From an uncultured Erysipelotrichaceae bacterium (GTDB lineage: Bacteria; Bacillota_I; Bacilli_A; RF39; UBA660), in NCBI GenBank assembly GCA_902788735.1, contig CADALJ010000006.1:1-43814 (forward strand): a stretch of 43,814 nucleotides of DNA, in the 5' to 3' direction. The position numbers and the translations under genes are program-made. The first letter of the stretch is position 1. The number at the start of each line of letters is the position of its first letter. The notes beneath the pieces were generated by a model that made no database searches, was not told the origin of the DNA, and was given only the letters and a program-made list of their open reading frames with translations. This document shows, in pieces, positions 1,745 to 37,927 of this stretch.

Positions 1745-2893
1745 ATGAAGGTAAGGACAATTAAAAACTGGATTATATTAGTATTATTAACTGTTTATAT
1801 AGTTTTATATAAATTATTTATATTTGAAAACTATATGAAGTATTCTGAGTTTATTAGTGTTTCTTTTTTAGGAGTGGTATTAGCTTTAAGTATCATATTT
1901 TTAGGATATAGAAAAGATAAGACAACTATTCTAGGTAAAAATATATTTAAAGTAGTAATTTTTTATATATTACTGGCTTTCTTTATTATGTATGGAATGG
2001 GAATAATTGTAGGATTTTTAAAGAATGCATATTCAAGGAGTTTTATAAGCATATTTGAAAATACCTTTTCACCTATACTTACAATATTATTGGTTGAATT
2101 TATAAGATATATATTTATTTCTGCTAATAAAGATAAGAAAGCTATAATTACTATATTTACTGTTCTTTTAATACTATTTGAAATATTTACGACAGTTCGT
2201 GCATTTGATATTTCTGATTTAGCTGTAACTTTTAATGTTACTGCTACGGTAATTTTACCTTGTATATTTAAAAATATATTATTGAGTTATTTAGCATATC
2301 ACGTTGGCTATAGGATACCTATTGTTTATAGATTAGTAATGGATATTTATTTATTTGTTGTACCTATAGTACCCAGTTTAGGTGATTACGTAAACTCAAT
2401 GATATTAATATCCTTACCAATACTGATTTATATTAGTGTATGTGGGATAGTTGATGATGCACAAAATAGAGCCGAACCAGTATTTAATAAGAAAAGATTT
2501 ACAGTATGGGATATACCAGTTGCTATAGTACTTGTTACTTTAGTTGCTTTAATTTCTGGATTTTTTCCACATTATATGATTGGAATAGGATCTAATTCTA
2601 TGAAACCAGTAATTAGTAAGGGTGACGCTGTTGTATTAGAAAAAGTAAATGAAAAGACAAAATTAAAAAAAGGTGATATAATAGCTTATAATAATGGTAA
2701 GTTAATAATAGTACATAGAATTCATAAAATTACAGGTAATGAACAGAGAAAAACTTATATTATGAAAGGTGATGCTAATAATGGTACTGATCCTCGTCCT
2801 GTATCAAGAAATCAAATACAGGGAGTTGTTAAATTAAGAATACCTTATATAGCTTGGCCTACAGTCTGGTTAACAGAACTATTTAATAGATAG
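1745..2893 (+). CDS. sipW: SipW/ER-type (S26B) signal peptidase I fused to N-terminal multi-pass membrane domain
   Basis: C-terminal GSNSMKP..KGD, IVHRI and KGDAN..D motifs (Ser-His type); about 7 hydrophobic segments upstream. Confidence 0.85.
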   Translation: MKVRTIKNWIILVLLTVYIVLYKLFIFENYMKYSEFISVSFLGVVLALSIIFLGYRKDKTTILGKNIFKVVIFYILLAFFIMYGMGIIVGFLKNAYSRSFISIFENTFSPILTILLVEFIRYIFISANKDKKAIITIFTVLLILFEIFTTVRAFDISDLAVTFNVTATVILPCIFKNILLSYLAYHVGYRIPIVYRLVMDIYLFVVPIVPSLGDYVNSMILISLPILIYISVCGIVDDAQNRAEPVFNKKRFTVWDIPVAIVLVTLVALISGFFPHYMIGIGSNSMKPVISKGDAVVLEKVNEKTKLKKGDIIAYNNGKLIIVHRIHKITGNEQRKTYIMKGDANNGTDPRPVSRNQIQGVVKLRIPYIAWPTVWLTELFNR

Positions 2894-2905
2894 GAGAGAT
2901 ATAAA

Positions 2906-3559
2906 ATGAAGGAGAATATAAAGGGCATATTATTTATAGTGGTTTCATTGATTTTAGGATTAGGAGCATATTATTTATATACTCATGATTTTGTTGGTTA
3001 TGCGCTTGTTGGTGCTACAGCGAGTGTGATATTAATTATATTTGGAATTATTTTTATCTTAAATAGTGGTGACCCAACAAAAATATATGAAAACAATATA
3101 AAGAATATTTTAAATACATTTGATTCCATTTTAGTTAAGAGTAATACAGTACCAAAATTAGTTGGACGTAATATTATTCTAGTGGAAGATATTGATGATA
3201 TGATTGATGCGCAGTTAGAGATTAGAAAACCTATTTGTTATTATAAGCAAACTGAGTCATGTTCATTTGTGCTTTTGGATGATAAAGAAGCTTATATTTA
3301 TATAGAAAAGTTAAATCAAGATGTAGTATCACCAATAGAAATAGAAATTGATTCTATCAAATTAAAACAAAAAAATTCAGAAGATTTAGATTCTGAAATG
3401 TTAAAAGACATAGAGAAGACTACGATAGTAAAACTATCTAATAAAAAAAGTTATAAGGTTTCTCCAATAAATAGAGTTGATAGGCCATATACTAAAGAAT
3501 CAAAAACTGAAGTAGAGGAAAATAAGAATTCAACTATTGAAGATATAGAAATTTTATAA
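2906..3559 (+). CDS. 2-TM membrane protein with DUF5305-like C-terminal domain
   Basis: two N-terminal TM helices; cytoplasmic domain aligns by eye with C-terminus of 22115..23227. Confidence 0.6.
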   Translation: MKENIKGILFIVVSLILGLGAYYLYTHDFVGYALVGATASVILIIFGIIFILNSGDPTKIYENNIKNILNTFDSILVKSNTVPKLVGRNIILVEDIDDMIDAQLEIRKPICYYKQTESCSFVLLDDKEAYIYIEKLNQDVVSPIEIEIDSIKLKQKNSEDLDSEMLKDIEKTTIVKLSNKKSYKVSPINRVDRPYTKESKTEVEENKNSTIEDIEIL

Positions 3560-3589
3560 TTTAAATAATAAACTAATAGGAGGGATAAG

Positions 3590-4375
3590 ATGAAGAAGAA
3601 AAGACTACGTTATAGTAGGAAAAGAATATTTATTGGCTTATTCCTTTTTTTATTTTTAATGGTTATAGGAGTAGGATATGCGTTAGTTACTACTAAATTA
3701 GAAGTAGATGGAATAGTACATGTTAAGGATGCTAGATGGGATGTGCAATTTAGTAATTTTCAACCAATTGCAGGTAGTGTTTTACCAATTTCTAATCCAA
3801 CTATAACAGATACTTCTATTAGTTTTTCTGCAAAAGTAGATGATATAGGAGATTTCTATGGATTCACAATTGATGTTACTAATCAAGGTACTATTAATGC
3901 AGATATAAGTGGTTTTTTATTTACACCAGATTTTTCTGATGTGGATTATATAGAATCTATTGTTGAATATTCTAATGGTATTCAAATAGAGGAAGGGGAT
4001 ATATTAGCTGCTGGTAAAACAAAAACAATTAAGGTCTTATTGAAATATAAAGATGATTTAAATGAAGAATTGTATCCAATAGAGGATCAATTATTTAATG
4101 TAGTTTTATCACTAGATTATGAGCAATATGTTGGAACTGAGAAAAATAAGATAGTACTTGATTCTAATGGAGAAGATGCTAGTGTAACTCCTAATGTATT
4201 AAAAAGAGACACTGGTAGTTATGCATTGGATCTACCAACTCCAATAAGAAATAATTATACTTTTGATGGATGGTATACAGCTAGGGATGGTGGAGATTTA
4301 GTTGATGATAATACATTGATTGATGATGATACAATATATTATGCTCATTGGAAATTGGATAGTAGTGGAGAGTAG
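3590..4375 (+). CDS. TasA/camelysin-like secreted protein with C-terminal InlB B-repeat (Flg_new)
   Basis: basic N-terminus, TM, GYA cleavage-like site; GDFYGFTIDVTNQGTINA resembles TasA PGD..F...N.GS; C-terminal P.R.NYTFDGWYT...YYAHW repeat. Confidence 0.65.
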   Translation: MKKKRLRYSRKRIFIGLFLFLFLMVIGVGYALVTTKLEVDGIVHVKDARWDVQFSNFQPIAGSVLPISNPTITDTSISFSAKVDDIGDFYGFTIDVTNQGTINADISGFLFTPDFSDVDYIESIVEYSNGIQIEEGDILAAGKTKTIKVLLKYKDDLNEELYPIEDQLFNVVLSLDYEQYVGTEKNKIVLDSNGEDASVTPNVLKRDTGSYALDLPTPIRNNYTFDGWYTARDGGDLVDDNTLIDDDTIYYAHWKLDSSGE

Positions 4376-4416
4376 TTAGATAAAGATGAGCATTTATAAT
4401 AATATGGGAGGCAATT

Positions 4417-5106
4417 ATGGTAAAAATAGGTATTCCATTAAGATATAGTCATTTAGAAGATGGTAGAAGTATTTTGTATTTAGCTGAACAAGTTAGACGC
4501 ACTTTTCAAAAAGCAGGTGCTTTTATAATTCCAATTGTTCCAAATCAAGATGTAGATTATGCAAATACTAGATATAATGATCAAGTTGAATTGAGTGAAC
4601 AAGAAAAAAAAGAAGTAGATGAATATTTGGATTTAGTGGATGGTGTAGTATTTCCAGGTGGATTTAAAATAACAAAATATGATGAATATTTACTTGAAAG
4701 ATGTGTAGAAAGAGATATTCCAACTTTAGGAATTTGTTTAGGAATGCAGTTGATGAGTTGTTATAAAGAAAAGTACTATGTTTATCCTAATGATTCATTT
4801 ATAAATCATAAACAAGAAAATGATAATGAATTAACTCATAAGGTTATGATAAATAATGATTCTTGTTTATATAAAATATTGGAAAAGAACGAAATAATGG
4901 TTAATAGTTTTCATAAATATCATGCTAATCCTAATGAATTCTTTAGTGTTAGTGCAAAGAGTGAAGATGGATATATTGAGGCTATTGAATTGAAGGATAA
5001 AAAGTTCATTATGGGTGTACAATGGCATCCAGAGATTAGTTATGATTATGATGATGATTCGAAAAAAATAATAAATTATTTTCTTAGTAAATGTAAAATT
5101 AATTAA
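4417..5106 (+). CDS. gamma-glutamyl-gamma-aminobutyrate hydrolase family (peptidase C26, class I glutamine amidotransferase-like)
   Basis: PGG, LGICLGMQ nucleophile elbow, VNSFH, GVQWHPE. Confidence 0.9.
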   Translation: MVKIGIPLRYSHLEDGRSILYLAEQVRRTFQKAGAFIIPIVPNQDVDYANTRYNDQVELSEQEKKEVDEYLDLVDGVVFPGGFKITKYDEYLLERCVERDIPTLGICLGMQLMSCYKEKYYVYPNDSFINHKQENDNELTHKVMINNDSCLYKILEKNEIMVNSFHKYHANPNEFFSVSAKSEDGYIEAIELKDKKFIMGVQWHPEISYDYDDDSKKIINYFLSKCKIN

Positions 5107-5150
5107 ATAGATATATAAATAGTTTGCATTGTGATATAATCAATATATGA

Positions 5151-5930
5151 ATGATAGGAGGTTTTTTATGGAAAATCAAGGTCAACAATTTGAATATCAC
5201 AATAATATTGTTAGTTTTATTATTGGTATTAGTTTCAATAACAATAGGTTATGCAGTTTTATCAACATCATTTAATGTTGTTGGTACATCTACAATTGCA
5301 GGTAAATGGTGTGTTGGGCCTAAATGTGGAACAGGAAATAGTGCATGTGATAATATTAGCACATGTCAAAATCCTCCAATTGAATGTCCAAATAATGATT
5401 GTATAATCACTGATTGTGATAAAAATCCATCTTTATGTAATTGTGATTCAAATTCTTTTGAATGTGCTGGGCCAACTGCAATAGATTGTACACAAGATCC
5501 TGATAAATCCGATTCAACAAAATGTGTTTGTGATGCAAATGGTTCATGTAAACCTATGGCACAAGTGTGGTTAATTGGAGAATCTATATATTTTAGAAAT
5601 ACATTAAATGAGCCAGGTGATGTATTTACATTTAATACTACTTATATAAATGGAGGTAGTATAGATGCAAAACTTGGATCATTTACTAAGAGTACATTAA
5701 ACGAAACAGCACAACAATTTTTAACATATGAAGTTAAAAATGCTGATGGTTCTCTAATTGAAAATAATGAACCTTTAAATGTAGGAGATTCACATACTTA
5801 TAGAGTAACAGTTACATATAAAAATGTAGATGTATTACCAACATCAGAGCAAATTGATTTAATAAATGAAGTGGCTAATGGTCATGTAGGGGCTACTTCG
5901 ACATTTACAGCTAATTATGTACAAAAATAA
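5151..5930 (+). CDS. TasA/camelysin-like secreted protein with Cys-rich insert (start uncertain)
   Basis: TM followed by IGYAVLSTSFNVVG; LNEPGDVFTF...NGGSIDA motif; ends F.ANYVQK; best RBS points to an out-of-frame ATG at 5168. Confidence 0.65.
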   Translation: MIGGFLWKIKVNNLNITIILLVLLLVLVSITIGYAVLSTSFNVVGTSTIAGKWCVGPKCGTGNSACDNISTCQNPPIECPNNDCIITDCDKNPSLCNCDSNSFECAGPTAIDCTQDPDKSDSTKCVCDANGSCKPMAQVWLIGESIYFRNTLNEPGDVFTFNTTYINGGSIDAKLGSFTKSTLNETAQQFLTYEVKNADGSLIENNEPLNVGDSHTYRVTVTYKNVDVLPTSEQIDLINEVANGHVGATSTFTANYVQK

Positions 5931-5956
5931 AGGCTAGAATTCTAGCTTTTTTTTTG
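5931..5956 (+). terminator. intrinsic terminator
   Basis: GGCTAG-AATT-CTAGCT hairpin plus long T run. Confidence 0.7.
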
Positions 5957-5984
5957 TTATAATAAGGAACCAATAGGTGATGCT

Positions 5985-6947
5985 ATGACTAAAAAAGAAA
6001 TAGAAAAAATAATCGATTATCTTAGTATTAAGGGATGTTTTAGTAGTTGTTTTAATGGTTATTCTAAGATGTATAGTATGACTACTGAAAATATTAGTGG
6101 TTTTCTTAATAAACATGATTTAAAAGATAAAAAAGTATTAACGGTAGCTGGTAGTGGTGATCAAAGATATAATTGCTATTTAAATGGTGCAAAAGAAGTA
6201 GTTTGTTTTGATGTTAATCCACTTGCAGAACTTCATATGAGATTAAAGGATACTGCTATGCAAGAGTTGAATTATACAGACTTTCTTAAATTCTTTGGTG
6301 TTATTATTGATAGTAGTGGTAATAATTTTTTAAATTTTGATATTTTTAATAAGTTTAAAAGATATTTAGATAATGATGTTTATTTATTTTATGACTTTTT
6401 AATTAATAAGTTTAGGAAGACTCCTTTACAAAATGCTTATGAAGATTTTTTATATAATTATACTACTATAAGAGAATTTGATGATTACATTGTTAAGAGT
6501 AATTTTATGAAGATTGCTAATAGTATAGGTGATAAAGATATTAAATTTTTGAATGTTAATGTAGCTAATCTACCGGAAGTATTAGATGGAGAAAAATTTG
6601 ATATGATACTTTTATCTAATATTAGTGACTATATTCATTATATTTATCCATATCCAGAAAACCATATGAAGAAATATAAAGAATTAGTGGATAAATTAGT
6701 TGATAATTTATATGATGGGGGTATTATTCAATTAGGATATATATATTCCAATTATGACGATTGTAAGCGATATGATGATTATAGTAAATTCCGTTTTGAT
6801 GAAAGTAGAAATAAGTATTTTCCATTTACTAAGTATTTTGTTGAAAATGTTCATTCATATTATGGTGGTAGAAAATATGATAAGGTTATTACTTACCAGA
6901 AAAATTTAAAGATTAAAGTATATAATATAGTGCAAAGAAAGTGGTGA
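5985..6947 (+). CDS. DUF3419/BtaA-like SAM-dependent transferase
   Basis: VLTVAGSGD motif I, FDVNP, FDMILLSNISDY. Confidence 0.7.
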   Translation: MTKKEIEKIIDYLSIKGCFSSCFNGYSKMYSMTTENISGFLNKHDLKDKKVLTVAGSGDQRYNCYLNGAKEVVCFDVNPLAELHMRLKDTAMQELNYTDFLKFFGVIIDSSGNNFLNFDIFNKFKRYLDNDVYLFYDFLINKFRKTPLQNAYEDFLYNYTTIREFDDYIVKSNFMKIANSIGDKDIKFLNVNVANLPEVLDGEKFDMILLSNISDYIHYIYPYPENHMKKYKELVDKLVDNLYDGGIIQLGYIYSNYDDCKRYDDYSKFRFDESRNKYFPFTKYFVENVHSYYGGRKYDKVITYQKNLKIKVYNIVQRKW

Positions 6948-6951
6948 TATT

Positions 6952-7524
6952 ATGAAATATGCAATTTTAACTTTATATGATGGAAAACATGTTGATGAAA
7001 TAATTAAGGATGGAAGATTTTCTGTTGTTAGAAAAAAATTACCTATTTATGCAGAAGCATCTCAGGGATATTATAATGAGCTTTACATAAGCGGTTATCG
7101 TAATGTAGTTGGCATGTATTATAAAAATCCAGAAACTAATAAAGATTTTCCATTTATGTTAGAAGAAATAAGTACACGTGTTTTTGAAGATATTGTTACA
7201 GGAATTCATATTTCTCAAAAGGCAATAATGAAAGGTGTAGCAGTAAATCGTTATGCGGCAATAAATAATTATTTGAGTGGAAGTCAGTATATATCTTGCG
7301 ACGCTAATTCTGTTGCTCAATATTTAAAAGAAATGAATAAAAATGATATGCATATATATAAGGAAAAACTACAAAATTTAGGCGATATATTGGTTGAATG
7401 TTATTATGAATCGAAAAGGCAAGAAAAAGAAGAACAACTTGCAAAGGAAAGACAATTTCGAAAAAGTATGGAAGATGAGAACTATATAAGACAGTTTATT
7501 AAAAATAGAAATAAGGATAATTAA
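6952..7524 (+). CDS. hypothetical protein
   Basis: 190 aa ORF with GGTG RBS, C-terminal coiled coil, no recognised motif. Confidence 0.7.
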   Translation: MKYAILTLYDGKHVDEIIKDGRFSVVRKKLPIYAEASQGYYNELYISGYRNVVGMYYKNPETNKDFPFMLEEISTRVFEDIVTGIHISQKAIMKGVAVNRYAAINNYLSGSQYISCDANSVAQYLKEMNKNDMHIYKEKLQNLGDILVECYYESKRQEKEEQLAKERQFRKSMEDENYIRQFIKNRNKDN

Positions 7525-7551
7525 AAAAATATTGTTTAATAGTAAAAAGTG

Positions 7552-7580
7552 TTGACAAATAAGAGTTTTTATAATAAAAT
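7552..7580 (+). promoter_or_regulatory. sigma-A promoter of infC operon
   Basis: TTGACA-17 bp-TAAAAT. Confidence 0.8.
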
Positions 7581-7589
7581 ACTACTAGT

Positions 7590-7703
7590 CAAGAAAAAAA
7601 GGAAAGAGATTTATATCCACCTGATCAGCGAATAGCGATAGAATTATTTTTAATTTTAATATGGTTTTTAAGCGGATATAAATTTTATATCTGCTTTTCT
7701 TAT
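7590..7703 (+). ncRNA. L20-leader-like attenuator of infC-rpmI-rplT
   Basis: CACCTGAT motif; terminator AAGCGGATATAAA/TTTATATCTGCTT plus T run; upstream ATTTATATCC can pair with its 5' arm (antiterminator). Confidence 0.7.
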
Positions 7704-7720
7704 TTATGGAGGTGTTAGAT

Positions 7721-8251
7721 ATCGCAAAGAATAATGATAACATGTTGGTTAATGAGCAAGTAAGGGTTCCTGAAGTATTAGTAATAGGACCAAACGGAGA
7801 GCAAGTGGGTGTTAAGAGAATAGAGGATGCACGTACGTTAGCATCTTATGCTGGACTTGATTTAGTTTTAATAAGCCCAAATGCAAATCCACCAGTTTGT
7901 AAAGTAATGGATTATAATAAGTTCCGTTATGAAAAACAAAAAAAAGCTAAAGAAGCTTTAAAGAAACAAAAGGCTACTATGTCAGAACTTAAAGAGTATC
8001 GTTTATCACCAGTTATTGATGTTGGAGATTTTGAGACTAAATTAAGAGCTGCAACTAAGTATCTAGAAAAGGGAGATAAAATAAAACTTACTATTCGTTT
8101 TAAGGGTCGTCAAATGGCTCATACAGAATTAGGTATGGATGTTTTAAATCGTTTTGCCGACAGAGTTAAAGATTATGCAGATATAGAACAAAGTCCTAAG
8201 TTAGATGGAAAGACTATGACTTGTGTTTTAGCGCCAAAGAAAGACAAATAA
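7721..8251 (+). CDS. infC: translation initiation factor IF-3 (probable ATC start)
   Basis: NEQVR, GLDLV, PPVCKVMDY, RFKGRQMAH; GGAGGTG RBS lies 6 nt before ATC at 7721. Confidence 0.95.
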   Translation: MAKNNDNMLVNEQVRVPEVLVIGPNGEQVGVKRIEDARTLASYAGLDLVLISPNANPPVCKVMDYNKFRYEKQKKAKEALKKQKATMSELKEYRLSPVIDVGDFETKLRAATKYLEKGDKIKLTIRFKGRQMAHTELGMDVLNRFADRVKDYADIEQSPKLDGKTMTCVLAPKKDK

Positions 8252-8270
8252 TATTAAGGAGGAGTTAAAT

Positions 8271-8456
8271 ATGCCAAAAATTAAAACACATAAAGGAACA
8301 GCTAAGGTTGTTACTAAAAGAAAAAATGATGTAAAAATTGGAAAACCAGGAAGTAGACATAATACTGGTTCAAAAAGTGCTAGCTTTAATAGAAGCTGCA
8401 GAAAGGGATCTAACCTAAGTAAGGCAGATCAAAATAGATTAAAGAATATAATCTAA
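8271..8456 (+). CDS. rpmI: 50S ribosomal protein L35 (divergent)
   Basis: MPKIKTHKG start; position between infC and rplT. Confidence 0.85.
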   Translation: MPKIKTHKGTAKVVTKRKNDVKIGKPGSRHNTGSKSASFNRSCRKGSNLSKADQNRLKNII

Positions 8457-8480
8457 TAAATTTTGAAGGAGGGAATATAG

Positions 8481-9086
8481 ATGGCAAGAGTAAAGAATGG
8501 AGCAGTTACAAAAGCTCGTCATAAAAAAGTTTTAAAAGAAGCTAAAGGTTACTTTGGTAGTAAACATAGATTATATAAAACAGCTAAAGAACAATTAATG
8601 CATTCTGGACAATATGCATTTAGAGACAGAAAACAAAAGAAAAGAGATTTCAGAAAATTATGGATTACAAGAATCAATGCAGCTTGTAGATTAAACGATA
8701 TTTCTTATTCAAGATTTATTGAAGGATTAAATAAAGCTGGAGTTGAAATTAATAGAAAGATGTTAAGTGAAATCGCTATTAATGATCCAAAAGCATTTAC
8801 AGAACTTGTAAAAGTTGCTAAAGATGGTAAAGCTGGTAAAGTTAAACCTGCTACAGAAGTTACTGGAAATGAAGTAACTATTGGATCAGCAAAAAAAGAA
8901 ACTAAGAAAGAAACTAAGGCTGAAGTAAAAGAAGATAAAAAGGAAGAAAAGAAAACTACAACTAAGAAAGTAGCTACAGCAAAAAAAGAAGTTAAAGAAG
9001 AAAAACCAGTAGCTAAAAAAGCTACTACAGCAAAGAAAACAACTACAACTAAGAAAGCTACAACTACTAAAAAAACTACAAAATAA
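8481..9086 (+). CDS. rplT: 50S ribosomal protein L20 with Lys/Thr/Glu-rich C-terminal extension
   Basis: [42 protein letters not shown]. Confidence 0.97.
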
Positions 9087-9089
9087 TAA

Positions 9090-9152
9090 ACATACTAATG
9101 AATTGACTAGTCTAGTGCCCAATGGGTGATTGGTTTTAGAAATTAGTAGAAG
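9090..9152 (+). ncRNA. rpsB (S2) leader-like RNA structure
   Basis: nested pairings TACTAAT/ATTAGTA, GACTAGTC/GATTGGTT, GCCC/GGGT directly upstream of rpsB. Confidence 0.55.
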
Positions 9153-9179
9153 ATAAAAACGAAAAGGAGAATTAAAAAA

Positions 9180-10172
9180 ATGACTGTTATATCAATGAAT
9201 TATTTATTAGAAGCTGGTGTTCAATTTGGACATCAAAAGAGAAGATGGAATCCAAAAATGAAGGAATATATCTTCACTACAAGAGATGATATTTATATTA
9301 TCGATTTACAAAAAACTGTTAAAAAATTAGAAGAAGCTTATGAAGCTTTAAAAGAAATTGCACAAAATGAAGGAAAAGTATTATTCGTAGGTACTAAAAA
9401 ACAAGCTCAAGAAGCTGCTGAAGAATGTGCTACAAGAACTAACATGTATTTCGTAAACGAAAGATGGTTAGGTGGAACTTTAACAAACTTCAAAACTATC
9501 CGTTCAAGAATTAGAAGAATGGAAGAAATCGAAAAAATGGAAGAAGACGGAACTTTCGATGCTTTACCAAAGAAAGAAGTAATCGGTCTTAAAAAAGAAT
9601 ACGAAAAATTAAACAAGAACTTAAGAGGAATTCGTGAAATGAAGAAAATGCCTCAAGCAATGGTTATTGTTGATCCTCGTAAAGAAGAAATAGCTATTAA
9701 AGAAGCTCATATTTTAGGAATACCAGTATTTGGTGTAGTTGATACAAACTGTGATCCAGATATGGTTGATTATGTTATTCCAGGTAATGATGATGCAGTA
9801 AGATCTGTTAAGTTATTAATTGGTGCTTTAACTAATGCAATTGCTGAAGTTAACGGAAATGAAGTAATTGATTATATTACTGAAGATGAAAAAACTGTTA
9901 AAGAAGAAGCAACTACAAAAGAAGATACAGTAGAAGTTAAAGAAGAAAAGAAACCTGCTAAAAAGGCAGTTAAAAAAGAAGAAGTAAAAGAAGTAACTCC
10001 TGAAGTAAAGGAAGAAGTTAAAGTTAAAGAAGAAAAGAAACCTGCTAAGAAAGCAGCTGAAGATTTAGATTCATTAACATTAGCTGATTTAAAAGCAAAA
10101 GCTAAAGATGCTGGAATCAAAGGTTATTCAACAATGAAGAAAGCAGAAATTATTGAAGCTTTATCTAAGTAA
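9180..10172 (+). CDS. rpsB: 30S ribosomal protein S2 with acidic/Lys linker and C-terminal Rho-N-like domain
   Basis: [37 protein letters not shown]. Confidence 0.97.
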
Positions 10173-10183
10173 TTTTACTTATT

Positions 10184-10210
10184 AAGGAGTGAGGTTTCAC
10201 TCCTTTTTCT
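10184..10210 (+). terminator. terminator/attenuator hairpin between rpsB and tsf
   Basis: AAGGAGTGA-GGTT-TCACTCCTT followed by TTT. Confidence 0.6.
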
Positions 10211-10252
10211 AAATATAGTTTATAATTAATAAGAAAGAATTGGAGGATTAAT

Positions 10253-11065
10253 ATGTTTAGTGCAAGTGATGTAAAAGAATTAAGAGAAAAAACTGGTGCA
10301 GGAATGATGGATTGCAAAAAAGCATTAGATGCCTGCGAAGGAAATATGGAAAAGGCTATTGATTGGCTTAGAGAAAAAGGTATTGCTAAAGCAGCTAAGA
10401 AAGAATCAAGAATTGCTGCTGAAGGAATTACTGAAGTAGCAGAAAATGGTAATGAAGCAGTTATACTTGAAGTTAACTGTGAAACAGATTTTGTTACTAA
10501 AAATGAAAAATTTACTAATTTAGTAAATGAGATAAGAGATACTTTAATGAGTAGTGATGCTAAAACAACAGAAGAAGCAAAAAAAGTTAAACTTTCTAGT
10601 GGTAAAACTGTTGAAGAAGCTATAGTTGAAGCTTCACATATGGGTGGAAAAATTACTGTAGTAGTTGTAGTAAAAGGATCAAATGTTGATGTAGCAAGAG
10701 ATGTAGCTATGCAAGCATGTGCTATGAGTCCAGTTGCTGTAAATCGTGATAATGTTCCAACTGAAATGGTTGAACATGAAAAAGAAATGATTTTAGCAGA
10801 GATTAAAAACGATCCTAAAAATGAATCTAAATCAGAAGAAATCTTAGATAAGATGGCTACTGGTAGATTATCTAAATTCTTTAAAGAAAATTGTTTAGTA
10901 GAACAAGATTTCATTAAAGATTCATCTATGACTGTTGCTAAATATGCAGAAGCTAATGGATGTGAAGTTTTATCAATGGTAAGATATGCTGTTGGTGAAG
11001 GTATTGAAAAACGTCAAGAAAACTTTGCTGAAGAAGTAGCTGCTCAAATAGATGCTGCAAACTAA
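10253..11065 (+). CDS. tsf: elongation factor Ts (internal segment apparently missing)
   Basis: LREKTGAGMMDCKKAL, EVNCETDFV, GEGIEK; conserved IGEKI..RRF segment absent. Confidence 0.93.
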   Translation: MFSASDVKELREKTGAGMMDCKKALDACEGNMEKAIDWLREKGIAKAAKKESRIAAEGITEVAENGNEAVILEVNCETDFVTKNEKFTNLVNEIRDTLMSSDAKTTEEAKKVKLSSGKTVEEAIVEASHMGGKITVVVVVKGSNVDVARDVAMQACAMSPVAVNRDNVPTEMVEHEKEMILAEIKNDPKNESKSEEILDKMATGRLSKFFKENCLVEQDFIKDSSMTVAKYAEANGCEVLSMVRYAVGEGIEKRQENFAEEVAAQIDAAN

Positions 11066-11133
11066 AAAGAAAGAAAAAACTTTCTTTTTTTTTGTTTTTC
11101 GAATATACTTATATATATAATAGAGGTGAGTAT

Positions 11134-13227
11134 ATGAAGAAAGATAACATTGAAAAAATTGATGAACAAATAGAAAGTTTGAAGAATGTTTCTAAGAAAA
11201 CAGATAAGACTTCTAAGGTTATAATAGATAGAAAATATGATTATGATGATATAGGAGAAAATGATACTAAAAAGATAGATACTATTGAAGATATAAAAGA
11301 AGATAGTCTTGAAAAGACAAAAGAAATTGAACAGGTATCTGATGTGGTAGAAGAAAATAGTGAGCCAAAAGAAATTACTGAAGAATTTAAAAACGAAATA
11401 GAACCACCTAAAAAGAAAAATGTATTAATGCCAATATTAATAGGATGTGGTTTATTAATCATTATTTTAATCATTATTTTAGTAATAGTACTACAACCTA
11501 AAAAAAATACTTCATCTACTAATAATGATAAAGTTCTTACTAAAAATGAACAAAAAAAAGTAATTAATGGTTATGGGGATGCATTAAAAGGTGTTATTGC
11601 TGTATATTCTGAAAAACAAAATGTATTATTAGAATATGATGATGCAATTAAGTTAATTGATTATAAGTATAAAGTTGTTTGCAAAACACATGAGATATAT
11701 GAAGATGGTTCAGTTTATTTAGATAAATGTATGATTGATGATAAGTCTACTAGTTATTCTTATGGTGAAAAACAAGAAAAGAAAGAAGAACCTAAGATTA
11801 GTGAAGATGCTATTAAAGTTTATGTATCTAAGAAAGATAATAAATCTACATTGACTGAACCTAAAAATTTAGATGATTATGATATGTATGCATTTGAAAT
11901 TGATGGTGCTTATTCAGATTTAACTTTACTTAGTGATTCTAGTGATTATATATTCTATAGTGATGCTGAATATAATGTTCATATGATTAATTTTAAAACT
12001 AATAAAAAAGTTATGAATAATTTAACATATCAAGCAGTACTTCCAATAAAAATAGGCGATATATATGATACCAAATATGTAGCTATTAAGATGAATGATA
12101 AATGGGGTATTTATAATATTACTAATAATGAGAGAACTGTTTCCCATAAATATGATAGTATAACTCCTACACTTTATATGGGAACAAGTGGACCAGCATT
12201 ATTTATTAGTACATTAGATGAGGGAATAGTTGCTGTTGCTAATTATGGTGATACTCCATCTTATGGTGTTATTGATTATAAAAGTGGTAAAGAATTAATT
12301 AAACAAGAATATAAAAGTATGTTAAAGAGTGGTTCTTATTTGTGGGCTGTAGATTATTATGATGAAGGACATATATTTGATTATAATGGTGTGGAATATT
12401 TAAATGGAAAATATGATAATATATACTGGATGGTTGATGGCAAATATGTTTTAGTAAATGATCAAGGAGAAACAAAAATAGTATCTATAAAAGGAAAAGA
12501 TATTTATTCATATGGAAAAGTTAATATAGGTAGAATTAATTATGGTTTAACTTATAATAATGGTGCATTATTCCAATTTGAAAATCCATCAAAAGATGAA
12601 AATGATTATAATACTGGGTGTGTTGAATTAATATATGATTCATCTACTAAAACAGGAGAAGTAAAAACAAGTTTCTGTGGTGGAATTGCTAAACCAGTAC
12701 TTTATTTATATCCTAAGAAAACTACTAAAGTAAAAGTAACTTTTGAACATCCAGAATATTTAGAAACTACTTATCCTAAATATATGGGTAGTTGGGAAGT
12801 AAAAGCTTATACAAATGGTGATTTATATGATAATAATGGTGCATACTACTATGCATTATATTGGGATGAAAAACAAGTTCACAGTGTAGATTTTTCTACA
12901 GGATATTATGTAGAAAAAGATAATGCTATAGAATTCTTAGAGCAAAAATTATCATATATAGGATTATCTAGACGTGAAGCTAATGAATTTATAATGTATT
13001 GGTTACCAGTGCTAGAAAAAAATGAAAAAAGTTTAGTTTATTTTGAACTTACAGAAGAAAGAGAAAGTTATAATAAATTAAATATTTCTCCTAAACCAGA
13101 TTCATTATTAAGATTAGTAATTCATATTAAAAAGGTTGATAAAAAGGTAAATATTCCTAAACAAAATTTAACTAAGCTACAAAGAAAAGGATTTGTAGCA
13201 GTTGAATGGGGAGGAACAACTTATTAA
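11134..13227 (+). CDS. membrane-anchored surface protein with C-terminal KPxxYLYP...VEWGG domain
   Basis: charged N-terminus, one TM, beta-rich WG-like repeats, uncharacterised C-terminal domain; GAGGTG RBS before ATG 11134. Confidence 0.7.
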   Translation: MKKDNIEKIDEQIESLKNVSKKTDKTSKVIIDRKYDYDDIGENDTKKIDTIEDIKEDSLEKTKEIEQVSDVVEENSEPKEITEEFKNEIEPPKKKNVLMPILIGCGLLIIILIIILVIVLQPKKNTSSTNNDKVLTKNEQKKVINGYGDALKGVIAVYSEKQNVLLEYDDAIKLIDYKYKVVCKTHEIYEDGSVYLDKCMIDDKSTSYSYGEKQEKKEEPKISEDAIKVYVSKKDNKSTLTEPKNLDDYDMYAFEIDGAYSDLTLLSDSSDYIFYSDAEYNVHMINFKTNKKVMNNLTYQAVLPIKIGDIYDTKYVAIKMNDKWGIYNITNNERTVSHKYDSITPTLYMGTSGPALFISTLDEGIVAVANYGDTPSYGVIDYKSGKELIKQEYKSMLKSGSYLWAVDYYDEGHIFDYNGVEYLNGKYDNIYWMVDGKYVLVNDQGETKIVSIKGKDIYSYGKVNIGRINYGLTYNNGALFQFENPSKDENDYNTGCVELIYDSSTKTGEVKTSFCGGIAKPVLYLYPKKTTKVKVTFEHPEYLETTYPKYMGSWEVKAYTNGDLYDNNGAYYYALYWDEKQVHSVDFSTGYYVEKDNAIEFLEQKLSYIGLSRREANEFIMYWLPVLEKNEKSLVYFELTEERESYNKLNISPKPDSLLRLVIHIKKVDKKVNIPKQNLTKLQRKGFVAVEWGGTTY

Positions 13228-13299
13228 AAAAGTGACAAGTAGTAAATTACTACTTGTTTTTTTTCTATTTTTTGATATAATATAGACGCATATAAGGGG

Positions 13300-13887
13300 A
13301 TGAGTGCGATGAGTAAAAAGGCTAATGTAAAGAAAAAATCTACTACTAAAAAAGTAGATAAGAAACAAGATGAATTATTAAAAGATAAGAAAATTATTGA
13401 AAATACTGATATTATTAAAGCGGAAAAAAGTAAAAGTAAGAAAAATACTACTTCTAAGAAATCAAATACAAAGAAGCAAACTGTAAAAAAGGAAGCTACT
13501 TTAAAAAATGCAAAAAAAAGTGTAAAGAAAACAACAACTAAAAAAGCTGATACAGTCAAAAAAACACCTACTAAGAAAACAACTAATAAGGCTAAAGATA
13601 AGTTTGTTATTGTTACCGATGAAACTATTGATAATAATAATGAATCAAGTGAATCTCTAAAAAAATTAAATGCTTTATCTAATCAAATAAGAGATTTATA
13701 CGAAAAGTTAGAAGAAAAACAAGAAGTAATTTCTATAGATAATGTTTATATTAATGGTAATGAAGACGATGAAAGAATAGATAAAGCATATATTATATTA
13801 AATAGAATAACTATAATTTTATTTATTATATTTATGATACTTTTGATTGCTTTTATTGCATTTGTTATTTATATATGTACTTATTAG
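13300..13887 (+). CDS. Lys-rich low-complexity protein with C-terminal TM anchor
   Basis: KK-T-T-KK repeats, short coiled coil, terminal hydrophobic helix; TG-TATAAT promoter upstream. Confidence 0.7.
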   Translation: MSAMSKKANVKKKSTTKKVDKKQDELLKDKKIIENTDIIKAEKSKSKKNTTSKKSNTKKQTVKKEATLKNAKKSVKKTTTKKADTVKKTPTKKTTNKAKDKFVIVTDETIDNNNESSESLKKLNALSNQIRDLYEKLEEKQEVISIDNVYINGNEDDERIDKAYIILNRITIILFIIFMILLIAFIAFVIYICTY

Positions 13888-22114: not shown

Positions 22115-23227
22115 ATGGATCAAAATAATAAATTTCAATTTGTTAATTCAGAAGAAATTAAGGAAGAGTCAAAAGTAAATAATAATATTGAAAAAGAAGA
22201 TAATACTATAGAAAAAGAAGATAATACTATAGAAATATCTAAAGGAAGACATTTTAGTTTTGAAGAGAGAATAATTGCATCAGTAATAGTTATTTTAATA
22301 TTATTTGTAGGGGCTTGTTTCTTAGGATTAAAGGTTATTAATCATACTACTGTTACAAGAGTTAATTATGTTGAAAATAGTGATTTTACATATCAAGTAT
22401 GTTTAAAAAATAAAACATGTTTACCAGAAAATTCTTTATATAATTCATCTGATATTAATATTATTAAGTTATCATTTAGATACGATGCAAAGTATGAGAA
22501 AAGAGTTAAATATAATAATGATTATAGAGTACTTGCTATTATAAGTGCAGTTGACGAAGAAAGTGAAAAAGTTTTATATCAAGAAAGTATTAATTTAGTA
22601 GAAAAAACTACAGTTTCTGGAAAAAAAGATAAATATTCAATTAATGAAATAGTTACTATTAATTATGATAAATATAAAGAATTATTAAATGAGTATGGTA
22701 ATGCACAAAAAGATATGGAAGTAGTATTTTATTTAGAGGAAGGTAATGAAAGTAGAAATGTTTCTTCTATAGTTATTCCTTTTTCAAAAGATACTTTTGA
22801 ATTAAATAAACATACTACTGTTAATGAAGTTAGAAAGGCAAAGGAAGTAGTAAATGTTTGGGATACATACTCATTAGTATATGGATTAGCTACTTCATTT
22901 TTAACTATAATTTCATTAATATTAGTATATAAAACTACTAGTTTAGTTTTAAAGGTTACTAATAATAAAAGTGATTATGAAGAAGCTCTTGATAATATTT
23001 TAAAAGAATATAATAATATTATAATTGTGGCACAAGATGGATATGAATCTATAATTGAAAGAGAAATAATTAAAATTAGTGAATTTGAAGAATTAGTTAA
23101 AATACGAGATAGAATAGGTAAGCCTATTATATTTTCTAAAATAAATAATGTTAAAAGTGAATTTATTGTAGAAGATGAAAATGTAATATATAAATATGTG
23201 ATTAAAGAAGCTGATTTTACAAATTAA
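22115..23227 (+). CDS. DUF5305-like two-TM membrane protein
   Basis: TM, extracellular beta domain, TM, then cytoplasmic FEELVKI..IGKPI domain. Confidence 0.6.
   Translation: MDQNNKFQFVNSEEIKEESKVNNNIEKEDNTIEKEDNTIEISKGRHFSFEERIIASVIVILILFVGACFLGLKVINHTTVTRVNYVENSDFTYQVCLKNKTCLPENSLYNSSDINIIKLSFRYDAKYEKRVKYNNDYRVLAIISAVDEESEKVLYQESINLVEKTTVSGKKDKYSINEIVTINYDKYKELLNEYGNAQKDMEVVFYLEEGNESRNVSSIVIPFSKDTFELNKHTTVNEVRKAKEVVNVWDTYSLVYGLATSFLTIISLILVYKTTSLVLKVTNNKSDYEEALDNILKEYNNIIIVAQDGYESIIEREIIKISEFEELVKIRDRIGKPIIFSKINNVKSEFIVEDENVIYKYVIKEADFTN
22190..22231 (+). repeat. 21-bp tandem duplication (EKEDNTI x2)
   Basis: GAAAAAGAAGATAATACTATA repeated exactly twice, in frame. Confidence 0.9.
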
Positions 23228-33578: not shown

Positions 33579-33637
33579 AAAGAAATTGTTTGGAAAAATA
33601 CATATTTTATTGTATAATAAGTGATAGGGTGAAAGAT

Positions 33638-35815
33638 ATGTATTTAAAGGGAATAACAACATCTGGTTTTAAATCATTTGCTGATAAATTAGAAATAAAA
33701 TTAGATGGAAAAATTACATGTATTGTAGGACCTAATGGAAGTGGTAAAAGTAATGTAGTAGATGCTGTACGTTGGGTTTTAGGAGAACAATCAGTTAAAT
33801 CACTTAGAGGTGATGGTTCTATGACTGATGTTATATTTTCAGGTAGTAAAAGTAGGAATCCGCTTAATGTAGCATCAGTAGAATTAGTTTTTGATAATCA
33901 AGATCATTATTTAAATATTCCCTATACAGAAATATCTATTAAAAGAAGAGTATATCGTAGTGGAGAAAATGAATATTATTTAAATGGCGAAAAATGTCGA
34001 TTAAAAGACATTACTAATTTACTTATGGATACAGGTATGGGTAAAGAGTCATTTAATATTATTTCTCAAGGTGAAGTAGATAAAATACTTTCTAATTCAG
34101 CATATGATAGAAGGGTTATATTTGAAGAAGCATCAGGAATTTTAAAATATAAAAAGAGAAAAGAAGAAGCTCTTAGAAAACTTGATAGAACTCATAATAA
34201 CTTAGATAGAGTAAATGATATTATTACTGAGTTAGAGATGCAAGTTGGACCTTTAAAAGAGCAAAGTATTAAAGCTAAAGAATATTTAGAAAATAAACAA
34301 GGACTAGATAAATATGAAGTAGCACTCCTTGCTTATGACATTGAAAATTTAAATAATGAAGTAGAGAATACAAAAAAGAGAAAAGAAAAAGTAGATAGTG
34401 ATATTCAGACTATTTATAATGAATCTAGTAAAAGTGATGCTCGTAATCTTGATTCTTCTAATAAATTATCTAAATTAGAAAATGAAAAACAAGAATTAAA
34501 TAGTAAGCTATTAAAAGTAACTGAAGAAAAAGAAAAAATTGCTTCAGAAAAAGAATTATTAAAAGAAAGAAGTAAAACTACTAAAGAAGAAAATGTTATA
34601 AAAGAGGAAATTAGAGTAGCTTTAGAAACACGAGAAAAATTAAGTAATAGTATTTCTATAATAGAAGAAGATATTAAAGTTATAGTTAATAATAGTACTA
34701 AATTAGATAATGAGTCTATTGAAATAGAAAAAGAATTACAAAGTTTAAAATTAAAAAAGAATATGCTTAATAATGATTATTCTACTCATAATCAAGAATA
34801 TATTTCTACACTACATAAAATAGATAATTTAAAACTTGAAATAGAACAAAATGGTGATATGCCTAATAGTGTTAGAAATGTACTTAATAATACTAGTTTA
34901 ACAGGTATTCATAATACTATTGGTAATATATTAACTACAGAAGAAAAGTATGTTAAGGCTTTGAATACGGCAATAGCTTCTAATAAGAATTTTATTATTA
35001 CAAAAGATGAAGATGCTGCAAAACGTGCTATTAGTTATTTAAAAGATTCTCATTTAGGAAGAGCTACTTTCTTTCCTATGAGTGTTATCAAGGAACGTTA
35101 CATCGATTCTGAAAATTTAAATATATTAAGAAATAGTGAAGACTTTTTAGGAGTTATGTCTGATTTGGTTTCATATAATAGAGAATATGATTCTATTATT
35201 AAGAATCAATTAGGTATAGTAATTGTTTCTACTAATATGGATAGTGCAATTAGACTATCTCATATGATTAAAGCTAAATATAAAATAGTTACTTTAGATG
35301 GGGATCAAGTAAATGTAGGTGGTTCTTTAACTGGAGGTTCTATTTATAATGGAAAGAGTACAGTTATTTTAAAACAAGAATTAAACCATTTAGAAAGTAA
35401 AGCTAATTTATTAAAATTAGAAGAAGAAGAAATATCTAAAGAGTTATTAGAGAATACTAATATAATTAGTAAAACAGAAGAGAAATTGTTTAGTTTAAGT
35501 AAAGAAAAAGTATCATTAAAAGAATTATTAGATACTAAGAATAGTGAATTAAATAGTATTAAAGAAAAATTAGAGTTAACTAAGAAAGAGTATGAATCTT
35601 TAAAAACTATAAGTAATAATTCTGTTAGTAAAAAAGAAGAAGAATTGATCAAATTGTTTCATGAAAAAGAATCAGAGAAAGAAAAAATTGAGATTAAATT
35701 AAAATCTCTTAATAAGGAGATTAGTGATTTAAAAGAAAAAATAGAAAAAGATTTAGCAGATGATAAGTTAAAGAATAGTGAATTACGTAATTATGTTAGA
35801 AATACTTGCTACTGA
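33638..35815 (+). CDS. smc: chromosome segregation protein SMC, N-terminal part (frameshifted)
   Basis: GFKSFA, Walker A GPNGSGKS, ISQG Q-loop, hinge GRATF. Confidence 0.92.
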   Translation: MYLKGITTSGFKSFADKLEIKLDGKITCIVGPNGSGKSNVVDAVRWVLGEQSVKSLRGDGSMTDVIFSGSKSRNPLNVASVELVFDNQDHYLNIPYTEISIKRRVYRSGENEYYLNGEKCRLKDITNLLMDTGMGKESFNIISQGEVDKILSNSAYDRRVIFEEASGILKYKKRKEEALRKLDRTHNNLDRVNDIITELEMQVGPLKEQSIKAKEYLENKQGLDKYEVALLAYDIENLNNEVENTKKRKEKVDSDIQTIYNESSKSDARNLDSSNKLSKLENEKQELNSKLLKVTEEKEKIASEKELLKERSKTTKEENVIKEEIRVALETREKLSNSISIIEEDIKVIVNNSTKLDNESIEIEKELQSLKLKKNMLNNDYSTHNQEYISTLHKIDNLKLEIEQNGDMPNSVRNVLNNTSLTGIHNTIGNILTTEEKYVKALNTAIASNKNFIITKDEDAAKRAISYLKDSHLGRATFFPMSVIKERYIDSENLNILRNSEDFLGVMSDLVSYNREYDSIIKNQLGIVIVSTNMDSAIRLSHMIKAKYKIVTLDGDQVNVGGSLTGGSIYNGKSTVILKQELNHLESKANLLKLEEEEISKELLENTNIISKTEEKLFSLSKEKVSLKELLDTKNSELNSIKEKLELTKKEYESLKTISNNSVSKKEEELIKLFHEKESEKEKIEIKLKSLNKEISDLKEKIEKDLADDKLKNSELRNYVRNTCY

Positions 35816-36530
35816 TTATGAATTGACTTTTGAAAAAGCCAAGAGTGATTATGTTTTAGATATTGAACCTGATGAAGCAAGAGTTCTTGTTAATAAATAT
35901 AGAGCTAATATTAAACGTATTGGTATGGTTAATTTAGATGCTATAGAAGAATATGAAAAAGTAAATACAAGATATGTTTTCTTAACTAATCAAAGAGAAG
36001 ATTTATTAAATGCTGAAAATACATTATTAGAAATTATGAATGAGATGGATGATGTAATGAAAGAGGAATTTGCTACTACATTTGAACAAATTAAAGTAGA
36101 ATTTCAAAATGTATTTAAAGAGTTATTTAAAGGTGGTAAAGCAGATCTTAAATTAACTAATCCAGAAGATTTATTAAATACTGGAGTAGAAATAGTTGCT
36201 TCTCCTCCTGGAAAGAAACTTACTACTATTTCATTACTTAGTGGTGGAGAAAAAACATTAACTGCAATTAGTTTATTATTTGCCATACTTAATGTAAGAA
36301 CAGTGCCTTTCTGTATATTTGATGAAGTTGAAGCTGCACTAGATGAAGCTAACGTTGCAGGATTTGGTGAATACTTATCTAATTATAAAGATAAGACACA
36401 ATTTTTGATAATTACGCATAAGAAAAAGACTATGGAATATGCTAATACACTTTATGGTATTACAATGCAAGAGTCTGGTGTATCAAAACTTGTTAGTGTT
36501 AAGTTAGAACAACACGAAGAATTTTTATAA
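35778..36530 (+). CDS. smc: SMC C-terminal part (coiled coil and head)
   Basis: GMVN, LSGGEK signature, FDEVEAALD, ITH. Confidence 0.92.
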   Translation: MNYVIMLEILATDYELTFEKAKSDYVLDIEPDEARVLVNKYRANIKRIGMVNLDAIEEYEKVNTRYVFLTNQREDLLNAENTLLEIMNEMDDVMKEEFATTFEQIKVEFQNVFKELFKGGKADLKLTNPEDLLNTGVEIVASPPGKKLTTISLLSGGEKTLTAISLLFAILNVRTVPFCIFDEVEAALDEANVAGFGEYLSNYKDKTQFLIITHKKKTMEYANTLYGITMQESGVSKLVSVKLEQHEEFL

Positions 36531-36563
36531 AAAAAAGAGATCATTTAGATCTCTTTATTTTTT
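36529..36563. terminator. bidirectional terminator between smc and the kinase-like cluster
   Basis: AAAGAGATC/GATCTCTTT flanked by A and T runs. Confidence 0.65.
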
Positions 36564-37218: not shown

Positions 37219-37233
37219 AATTAATTTTCCCCC

Positions 37234-37902: not shown

Positions 37903-37927
37903 AACTAATTTTCCCCCTAGATTAGTT

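Follow-up and report, generated by a model that had tools for sequence, protein, structure and literature searches.

A probable AbpX/Tafi-type surface fibre locus, with a signal peptidase predicted to carry a CAAX-protease-like membrane domain, in an uncultured Erysipelotrichaceae bacterium

The DNA analysed (hereafter the window) is a stretch of 43,814 nucleotides of contig CADALJ010000006.1 (C6) of an uncultured Erysipelotrichaceae bacterium (assembly GCA_902788735.1), and the system under study is a block of five co-directional genes at positions 1745-5930, between glyS and a DUF3419-like gene. The block encodes an archaeal/endoplasmic reticulum (ER)-type signal peptidase fused to a membrane domain, a short DUF5305 protein, two exported proteins which share an N-terminal module (designated subunits A and B) and a glutamine amidotransferase-like protein. 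An earlier note on this DNA had proposed a TasA-like fibre system processed by a SipW-type peptidase, and the four genes that it named all lie at the positions it gave. The genes form a real, coherent system, a variant of a recently described kind, and the block is probably an AbpX/Tafi-type locus, within the TasA superfamily, whose products would assemble without chaperones, by strand swapping, into a surface fibre or matrix. Its features are as follows (TM, transmembrane).

1649-1678, + strand: promoter-like site (TTGAAA-18-TATAAT, 11/12 matches), 5' of the peptidase gene
1745-2893, + strand: fused peptidase, 382 amino acids (TIGR02228, helix count)
1745-2464, + strand: N-terminal eight-helix membrane domain of the fused peptidase, predicted CAAX-protease (CPBP/Rce1/SpdC) fold, probably non-catalytic
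2510-2893, + strand: anchor helix and archaeal/ER-type signal peptidase I catalytic domain (TIGR02228, 5.4e-22)
2906-3559, + strand: short DUF5305 protein, 217 amino acids, two TM helices and a cytoplasmic domain (PF17231, 3.9e-11)
3590-4375, + strand: subunit A (GYA signal, strand, core, Flg_new)
3590-3682, + strand: signal peptide of subunit A, ending V-G-Y-A, predicted cut after A31 (model helix 9-34, family alignment)
3683-3742, + strand: conserved amphipathic N-terminal strand of subunit A, candidate donor strand (family alignment)
3743-4132, + strand: acidic beta-sandwich core of subunit A, eight predicted strands, ending Y-E-Q (structure model)
4151-4348, + strand: C-terminal Listeria-Bacteroides (InlB B-type) repeat of subunit A, passenger (PF09479, 4.8e-10)
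4417-5106, + strand: class-I glutamine amidotransferase/peptidase C26-like gene (PF07722, 2.6e-31)
5151-5930, + strand: subunit B, with signal I-G-Y-A, N-terminal strand, Cys-rich insertion and core ending Y-V-Q (motifs)
5310-5549, + strand: Cys-rich insertion of subunit B, 14 Cys (residues 54-133)
5929-5950, + strand: terminator-like hairpin (9 pairs) and T run just 3' of subunit B
22115-23227, + strand: full-length DUF5305-like paralogue (TM, ectodomain, TM, cytoplasmic domain), 20 kb downstream (PF17231, 8.0e-12)

Subunits A and B are 26% identical over 108 amino acids (E 3e-7). The motifs which the earlier note had read in both proteins were all located: a signal end I/V-G-Y-A (GYA at residues 29-31 of A and 33-35 of B), a strand of the form x-[LV]-x-T-x-[LF]-x-V-x-G, the motif [IP]GD..F..N.G[TS]I[ND]A (from residues 86 and 155) and a closing Y-x-Q (YEQ at 177, YVQ at 256). 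The InlB B-repeat claimed for subunit A was recovered as a Flg_new match (PF09479) at residues 188-253, while the Cys-rich module claimed for subunit B is present, and the sister species has conserved it too, but rather than forming a terminal passenger it is inserted between N-terminal strand and core. In the AlphaFold2 (AF2) model of subunit A (predicted local distance difference test score (pLDDT) 76.8, core mostly >90) a signal helix (9-34) is followed by coil (35-51), an eight-strand sandwich (52-179) and a poorly modelled Flg_new tail; the N-terminal strand is modelled in this monomer as coil outside the sandwich. A complex prediction with three copies of residues 30-185 gave a median score of 0.41 against a mark of 0.42 (controls 0.00-0.01), which counts neither way on binding. 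The mature cores are acidic, with an isoelectric point (pI) of 4.05 and 17.3% Asp plus Glu for subunit A and 4.35 and 11.6% for subunit B; the cores of eight motif-bearing paralogues have a pI of 4.05-4.8, and the family medians are 4.46 and 13.5%.

The start of the subunit B gene at 5151 is probably not the native one, to judge from the reading frames: an ATG at 5168 with an AGGAGG site reads MENQ..., as in the sister species, and in the assembly its frame stops after 35 codons. In both of the two independent DNA runs with contigs spanning the place, 53 extra letters were found between 5199 and 5200, which by arithmetic would restore the frame of ATG 5168. The gene as assembled lacks 53 bases that are present in other strains, which is a new observation, and the gap reflects an error of assembly or else a break specific to the strain.

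A profile built from nine cores of the same genome gave nine matches in it (the two in the window and seven further paralogues), with motifs beyond chance, which supplies the genome-wide count of GYA-signal proteins that the earlier note had proposed. In an alignment of 111 family members, numbered as in subunit A and with a predicted cut site, the signal end has G at -3 in 106/111, Y or F at -2 in 110/111 and A at -1 in 106/111, and the strand which follows is marked by L33 (94/111), L37 (109/111), I39 (103/111), G41 (107/111) and W50 (109/111); the approximately 20 residues after the predicted cut are among the most conserved stretches of the family. Type I signal peptidases as a rule cut at sites with small residues at -3 and -1, and a processing site with a functional strand behind it would be expected to show conservation of this kind. 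A signal of the type IV pilin sort was rejected, the conserved motif lying after the hydrophobic helix and not before it. One paralogue (contig C1, 3785-4306, 173 amino acids) has G-F-I in place of G-[YF]-A at its signal end and may be uncleavable, possibly as a membrane-held base subunit; its high profile score is circular because it is part of the profile, and in the first search it scored E 0.015.

The family is large: grouped at 50% identity it numbers 8845 clusters at E<=0.001, of which 4758 remain at 1e-10 and 1090 at 1e-30, and for 149 of the 150 clusters listed (proteins of 181-1165 amino acids) the module begins at residue 21 or earlier. The core had no Pfam match at E<=0.001 in 110/111 members (the exception being a weak Peptidase_M73 match, 5.6e-4), and no NCBIfam model describes it in the 111 members scanned, so that naming the family would annotate thousands of hypothetical proteins. 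Behind the core, the C-terminal domains among the 111 members include DUF6273 (12), Flg_new (7), DUF285/PARCEL (6), LRR_5 (3) and others. Among 21 proteins with a core 55-93% identical to that of subunit A, Flg_new was found in 2, DUF6273 in 7 and no Pfam domain in 12, and the sister-species orthologue of subunit A is core-only (182 amino acids, without the Flg_new repeat). The swappable passengers envisaged in the earlier note are thus a real feature, because near-orthologous cores carry different C-terminal parts; this comparison of sequences is also a new finding. DUF6273, the commonest passenger, appears in literature on phage receptor-binding proteins and diversity-generating retroelements, as far as the portions of that literature available here go. 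In the same-genus genome G074, a 2589-amino-acid protein which starts with the module lies directly after a peptidase and a DUF5305 gene (contig C1 of that genome, 4507-12276) and is a candidate giant tip adhesin.

The C-terminal part of the fused peptidase matches the archaeal/ER-type signal peptidase I model TIGR02228 (sigpep_I_arch) with 78.3 bits (cut-off 51.85), while the SipW equivalog NF046067 was not reached (57.5 bits, cut-off 190); of the label "SipW-type" given to it previously, the archaeal/ER-type class holds and identity with SipW itself does not. Eight to nine hydrophobic helices precede the catalytic domain, nine hydrophobic segments were counted, and the AF2 model (pLDDT 83.3) has ten helices, eight of them in the N-terminal domain (2-25, 31-53, 62-89, 100-127, 132-151, 159-186, 190-205 and 214-239), followed by the anchor helix (256-271) and a C-terminal helix (371-381). 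Judged by its residues, the signal peptidase I domain is catalytically intact, with S285, M286, G293, D294, H324, R325, K341, G342, D343, N345 and D349 invariant in 26/26 orthologues, and its best Foldseek match is human SEC11A/C (7p2p_A, E 2.3e-5; Z 12.5).

The N-terminal domain (residues 2-240) was aligned with VIA-align to SpdC (6u0o_A) with Z 13.2 over 228 residues (root-mean-square deviation (rmsd) 4.5) and to Rce1 (4cad_C) with Z 12.2 over 220 residues; the next fold matches were APH-1 (Z 8.2) and other helical rows (Z approximately 6-7, mostly approximately 54 residues). CPBP/CAAX intramembrane proteases carry a catalytic Glu and two His motifs. Across the 26 orthologues G86 is invariant and G90, N106, E118, R121, P207 and P210 are nearly so, reminders of the CPBP motifs are limited to E118 and R121, no His or Cys of the domain is conserved in at least 90% of the sequences, and the fused peptidase had no CPBP Pfam match. 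An active CPBP protease was rejected as the role of the domain, with no His conserved in the 26 orthologues; because of this, and with the precedent of SpdC and its partner SagB, a non-catalytic scaffold is the likeliest role of the modelled domain. The predicted CAAX-protease (Rce1/SpdC) fold of the peptidase membrane domain, without the catalytic histidines, is new: the main text of the AbpX preprint (10.64898/2026.01.04.697558) gives ten helices, but the words CPBP, Rce1, CAAX and SpdC are absent from that main text, and a full-text literature search gave no publication on a signal peptidase-CPBP fusion among the matches listed, as judged by titles and the beginnings of abstracts. The domain offers a concrete, testable idea for substrate recognition by the dedicated peptidases of TasA-like systems.

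The DUF5305-like membrane protein reported in the earlier note was confirmed at 2906-3559, where PF17231 scores 43.2 bits (cut-off 29) over profile positions 120-217 only, the C-terminal half; the protein has TM helices at residues 7-25 and 34-52 and no ectodomain. This short form lies at the matching place in two same-genus genomes (205 and 228 amino acids). The paralogue at 22115-23227, with TM helices at 53-71 and 253-271, matched PF17231 in the genome search, while hmmscan of this protein alone gave no DUF5305 match at E<=0.1; it is similar to the DUF5305 protein of contig C65 of the same genome (7e-21).

The earlier note had tied its proposal to the co-occurrence of the peptidase fusion, DUF5305 and GYA proteins, and this was found in a sample of 151 genomes of the same order (module at E<=1e-5, peptidase counted where full-length and fused). 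By component, 63 genomes have the module, 59 the fused peptidase and 64 DUF5305; all three were present in 58/151 and none in 82/151, figures which are a tally and not a test because kin are not independent. DUF5305 accompanies the fused peptidase in 59/59 genomes and the GYA module does so in 58/59, and in the single genome with the peptidase and without the module the peptidase has three stops. In 20 loci fetched for inspection, which were picked because the matches were adjacent, a GYA gene adjoins the peptidase gene in 20/20 and a DUF5305 gene is next in 18/20. The typical order is one to six tandem core-only subunits (165-205 amino acids), the peptidase, DUF5305 and, in some loci, a large protein (up to 2589 amino acids) that bears the module. 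The type of locus seen in the window (short DUF5305, subunits downstream) occurs in both same-genus genomes as well, and a second, canonical locus lies in the same genome as the window (contig C65, 1-4504, minus strand), in the order 222-amino-acid subunit, fused peptidase, full-length DUF5305, 198-amino-acid subunit and Flg_new-bearing subunit.

Further peptidases were observed elsewhere in this genome. A cluster on contig C8 (approximately 2092-13768) holds a 1107-amino-acid secreted protein, a 179-amino-acid weakly Peptidase_M73-like protein (19.8 bits, cut-off 22.5), further small secreted proteins, two SipW-type peptidases above the TIGR02228 cut-off, one of which starts a 650-amino-acid protein, and a third peptidase-like open reading frame (ORF). 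With others on contigs C24 and C13, approximately six SipW-type peptidases were counted in the 1-Mb genome, alongside one bacterial-type signal peptidase (C41) and five sortase matches. These gut and rumen bacteria, with genomes of approximately 1 Mb, nevertheless retain a number of private signal peptidases and up to 21 or more module copies, and so surface fibres and adhesins are probably central to their lifestyle.

On these grounds a mechanism can be proposed, in which processing of the subunits by the dedicated peptidase is very likely and fibre formation by strand exchange is likely. The precursors would enter the membrane via Sec and stay held there by the signal helix. The CAAX-like domain, itself non-catalytic, would be a scaffold of the kind that SpdC provides for SagB, positioning the peptidase and perhaps holding the signal helix of the substrate, with DUF5305 as an accessory subunit of the peptidase. 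A cut after G-[YF]-A would free the N-terminal strand, which would insert into the sandwich of the next subunit (donor-strand complementation). The core-only paralogues (165-205 amino acids) would build the shaft, while the subunit A protein (core plus InlB-type repeat) and the dispersed DUF6273 paralogues, and likewise the LRR or DUF285 members elsewhere in the family, would be tip or decorating adhesins joined by the same strand.

A number of results weigh against the assignment of the block as a fibre locus of the TasA superfamily, and most of them concern kinship to TasA. Neither subunit matched Peptidase_M73 (PF12389) at E<=0.1, and the best GYA paralogue of the same genome reached E 0.12; no SipW-cognate or exported-by-SipW NCBIfam model was found in the 111 family members, and sequence and profile searches of the PDB with the subunit family gave only a nanobody and FN3con (E 0.14-3.5, FN3con best at 0.14). 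The motif PGD..F...N.GS, which had been cited as a TasA motif, proved not to be specific to TasA, as at E<=1 30/111 members touch Pfam fn3 and 5/111 Peptidase_M73. Foldseek of the subunit A model against the PDB gave nothing at E<=0.001. In favour of the assignment, its best fold match among 48,161 chains was the Sulfolobus thread subunit 7pnb_A (Z 6.5), with the TasA fibre 8aur_A at Z 5.6 (126 aligned, rmsd 3.7) and the bundling pilus ABP 7ueg_A at Z 5.5; unrelated Ig-like and PapD-like domains (Z 5-6.3) and MSP and FimA domains tie with these, and all of the fold scores lie in the range of common arrangements. The fold comparison with TasA suggested previously gives a beta-sandwich and does not single out TasA: the modelled subunit fold fits TasA-like fibres but does not prove kinship.

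For a comparison of profiles, bona fide Peptidase_M73 proteins were looked for, with 2 partial matches in 201 class genomes and 0/401 in a phylum sample, and the comparison family used for hhalign was the divergent M73-like family of contig C8, of which 3/32 relatives are flagged PF12389. A 9-sequence profile of the subunits aligned to it with 81% probability over 128 columns, a point in favour of the assignment, and this fell to 56.7% over 70 columns with the 111-sequence profile; the aligned stretch includes the signal helix. In the ESM Atlas, 29 of the 30 nearest clusters are unnamed, and the one at rank 30 carries PF12389 on 15% of its members, no more than a lead. Neither sequence nor fold establishes homology to TasA itself.

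Other points against the assignment concern the locus. Cleavage, secretion and polymerisation are all unobserved, and no anchor to the cell was identified. The window locus is atypical, with no core-only subunit, a DUF5305 protein without ectodomain and a subunit B whose native start is out of frame. The peptidase of the C65 locus is broken (the segment with the catalytic His is lost and the frame shifted), and because of this the fused peptidase of the window is the only intact copy found in the assembly; in genome G074 both fused peptidases are intact. Finally, the strand of AbpX homologues as described in the available part of the preprint is aromatic at position 2 and acidic at position 4, whereas the strand here, counted from the predicted cut, reads x-L-x-[TS]-x-L-x-I (L2 in 94/111, T or S4 in 93/111), and Ca2+-bridged docking is doubtful because the strand lacks the aromatic and acidic positions.

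The same observations leave room for a dedicated secretion route without polymerisation, in which the peptidase and DUF5305 serve to mature a private group of exported proteins and the module is a carrier or stalk for monomeric surface-bound or released adhesins or enzymes. The unproven link to TasA, the FN3-like core motif, the many large members with adhesin-like C-termini and the dispersal of members over the genome, away from the peptidase, would all agree with this, but we hold it to be unlikely, as it leaves unexplained the tandem core-only genes beside the peptidase in most loci, the strong conservation of approximately 20 residues after the cut site and the match of the whole layout to loci with polymerising subunits. 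If instead the N-terminal helix were kept in most members, tying module and passenger to the membrane, with the peptidase cutting only a few or shedding them on cue, the C-termini of the paralogues read, in which no cell-wall or membrane anchor was seen, and the possibly uncleavable C1 paralogue would be accounted for. Such signal-anchored display is improbable given the small residues kept at -3 and -1 in 106/111 members, the invariant catalytic residues of the peptidase and the tight co-occurrence of the components. That ordinary secreted FN3-like proteins lie near a spare signal peptidase by chance was already disfavoured and is hardly credible: the core motif has its weak fn3 similarity and the genome its several other SipW-type peptidases, but the near-complete association of module and DUF5305 with the fused peptidase, the gene order conserved in 18-20 of 20 loci and a family-specific signal end speak against a chance neighbourhood.

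The strand-exchange fibre reading can be taken further, to a scheme that we consider possible but doubtful. The G-[YF]-A module would be a universal surface-display plug: dozens of dispersed adhesin-bearing proteins per genome, whose passengers may include InlB-type repeats, DUF6273, LRR, DUF285 and giants of up to 2589 amino acids, would all be processed by a single CAAX-scaffolded ER-type peptidase complex, and the freed strand would clip each of them onto a common core-only fibre. Peptidase, CAAX-like domain and DUF5305 would then be a multi-part signal peptidase complex of prokaryotes, analogous to that of eukaryotes, and small-genome gut bacteria would possess an exchangeable adhesin repertoire.

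The genome of the source contig is 1.02 Mb in size, with 27% G+C and 88% completeness. With the fused peptidase protein as query, the closest named relatives were four rumen or gut metagenome-assembled genome records (Bacilli, Erysipelotrichaceae or Bacillales). Near-identical DNA was found in bovine, sheep and mouse gut metagenomes, with at least half of the sampled words present in 18 runs, one of which is possibly the source sample. In a metatranscriptomic library small contigs cover 4130-4517 (2 and 14 mismatches), although contigs cannot show transcription, and a contig of a second library, probably of DNA, covers 5623-5881. The five genes are bracketed by the promoter-like and terminator-like sites at 1649-1678 and 5929-5950; terminator-like sites number 4 in the region against 0.8 expected, while the promoter-like site is weak evidence because such sites are not enriched there (47 against 53.7 expected).

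The C26-like gene (4417-5106) between the two subunit genes encodes a cytoplasmic protein and occupies the same place in the sister species (3800-4507). The ORFs read beside the locus showed no sign of an SLH or LPXTG anchor, a kinase or a c-di-GMP gene. Elsewhere in the window, the smc gene (33590-36530) is apparently split into two overlapping frames (741 and 250 amino acids) by a frameshift or assembly error, three tandem paralogous ORFs (225, 222 and 220 amino acids) lie on the minus strand at 36541-38590, where GC skew is approximately zero, and a 711-amino-acid single-pass membrane protein without convincing family match is encoded at 11092-13227.

Among known systems the AbpX- and Tafi-type loci come closest, rather than tapA-sipW-tasA. 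In the part of the Bacillus subtilis work consulted (PMC9674648), tapA-sipW-tasA likewise has an archaeal/ER-type peptidase gene next to a fibre subunit gene, and the donor strand of TasA is formed by mature N-terminal residues 28-38. The present system differs in its lack of a Peptidase_M73 match and of TapA, and in its extra eight-helix domain and DUF5305; the absence of a recognisable TapA, remarked on in the earlier note, agrees with the NCBIfam matches of eight proteins scanned, which include no TapA model. The eukaryotic signal peptidase complex (SEC11A/C, 7p2p, 7p2q) is alike in being a Ser/His type enzyme with membrane accessory subunits. The latter are SPC12, SPC22/23 and SPC25, and they are unrelated to the CAAX-like domain and DUF5305.

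For the membrane domain the nearest precedent is SpdC of Staphylococcus aureus, described in the available part of the source (10.1101/2020.05.21.109470) as an 8-TM CAAX-like protein which acts as a non-catalytic scaffold for the single-pass membrane-anchored hydrolase SagB. In that pair SpdC and the hydrolase, a glucosaminidase, are distinct polypeptides, whereas here the domain is fused to a signal peptidase; the fused peptidase would be a second example of a membrane-anchored hydrolase with a CAAX-like scaffold.

The haloarchaeal Tat-fimbriae, as far as they are described in the part of PMC11821415 that was available, are encoded by tafA-G, and their signal peptidase TafD is needed for pilin processing, with no fimbriae formed upon deletion of tafD; the fibre follows a tip-adapter-shaft-anchor logic with donor-strand exchange. 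As in the present system, a DUF5305 protein (TafG) is paired with the peptidase and there are several pilin-like subunits. Export of the Tafi subunits is by the Tat pathway, and in TafD four TM helices are combined with a second outer domain, while the signals here lack twin arginines and the peptidase has the CAAX-like domain.

AbpX-type loci comprise AbpX of Pyrodictium abyssi and archaeal and bacterial homologues, assigned to the TasA superfamily (bioRxiv 10.64898/2026.01.04.697558), and the subunit family described here may already lie inside the published AbpX cluster. On the preprint's description, in the part available, both systems have a ten-TM-helix signal peptidase I, an accessory gene for DUF5305, acidic subunits (pI about 4 and about 15% Asp plus Glu there; 4.05 and 4.35 here) and an amphipathic N-terminal strand for which the monomer prediction shows no structure; minor subunits, tip proteins with other domains and occurrence in Bacillota are also shared. 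DUF5305 is named as a putative peptidase accessory for AbpX loci in the preprint and for Tafi loci in PMC11821415, in the portions consulted; the DUF5305 protein of the window differs from that of AbpX-type loci in lacking an ectodomain. As the AbpX/Tafi kind of system has already been published (2025-2026), the locus as such is no surprise, and besides its strand signature and the missing ectodomain of DUF5305 it is set apart from that layout by the Cys-rich insertion of subunit B and the many passenger-bearing paralogues dispersed over the genome.

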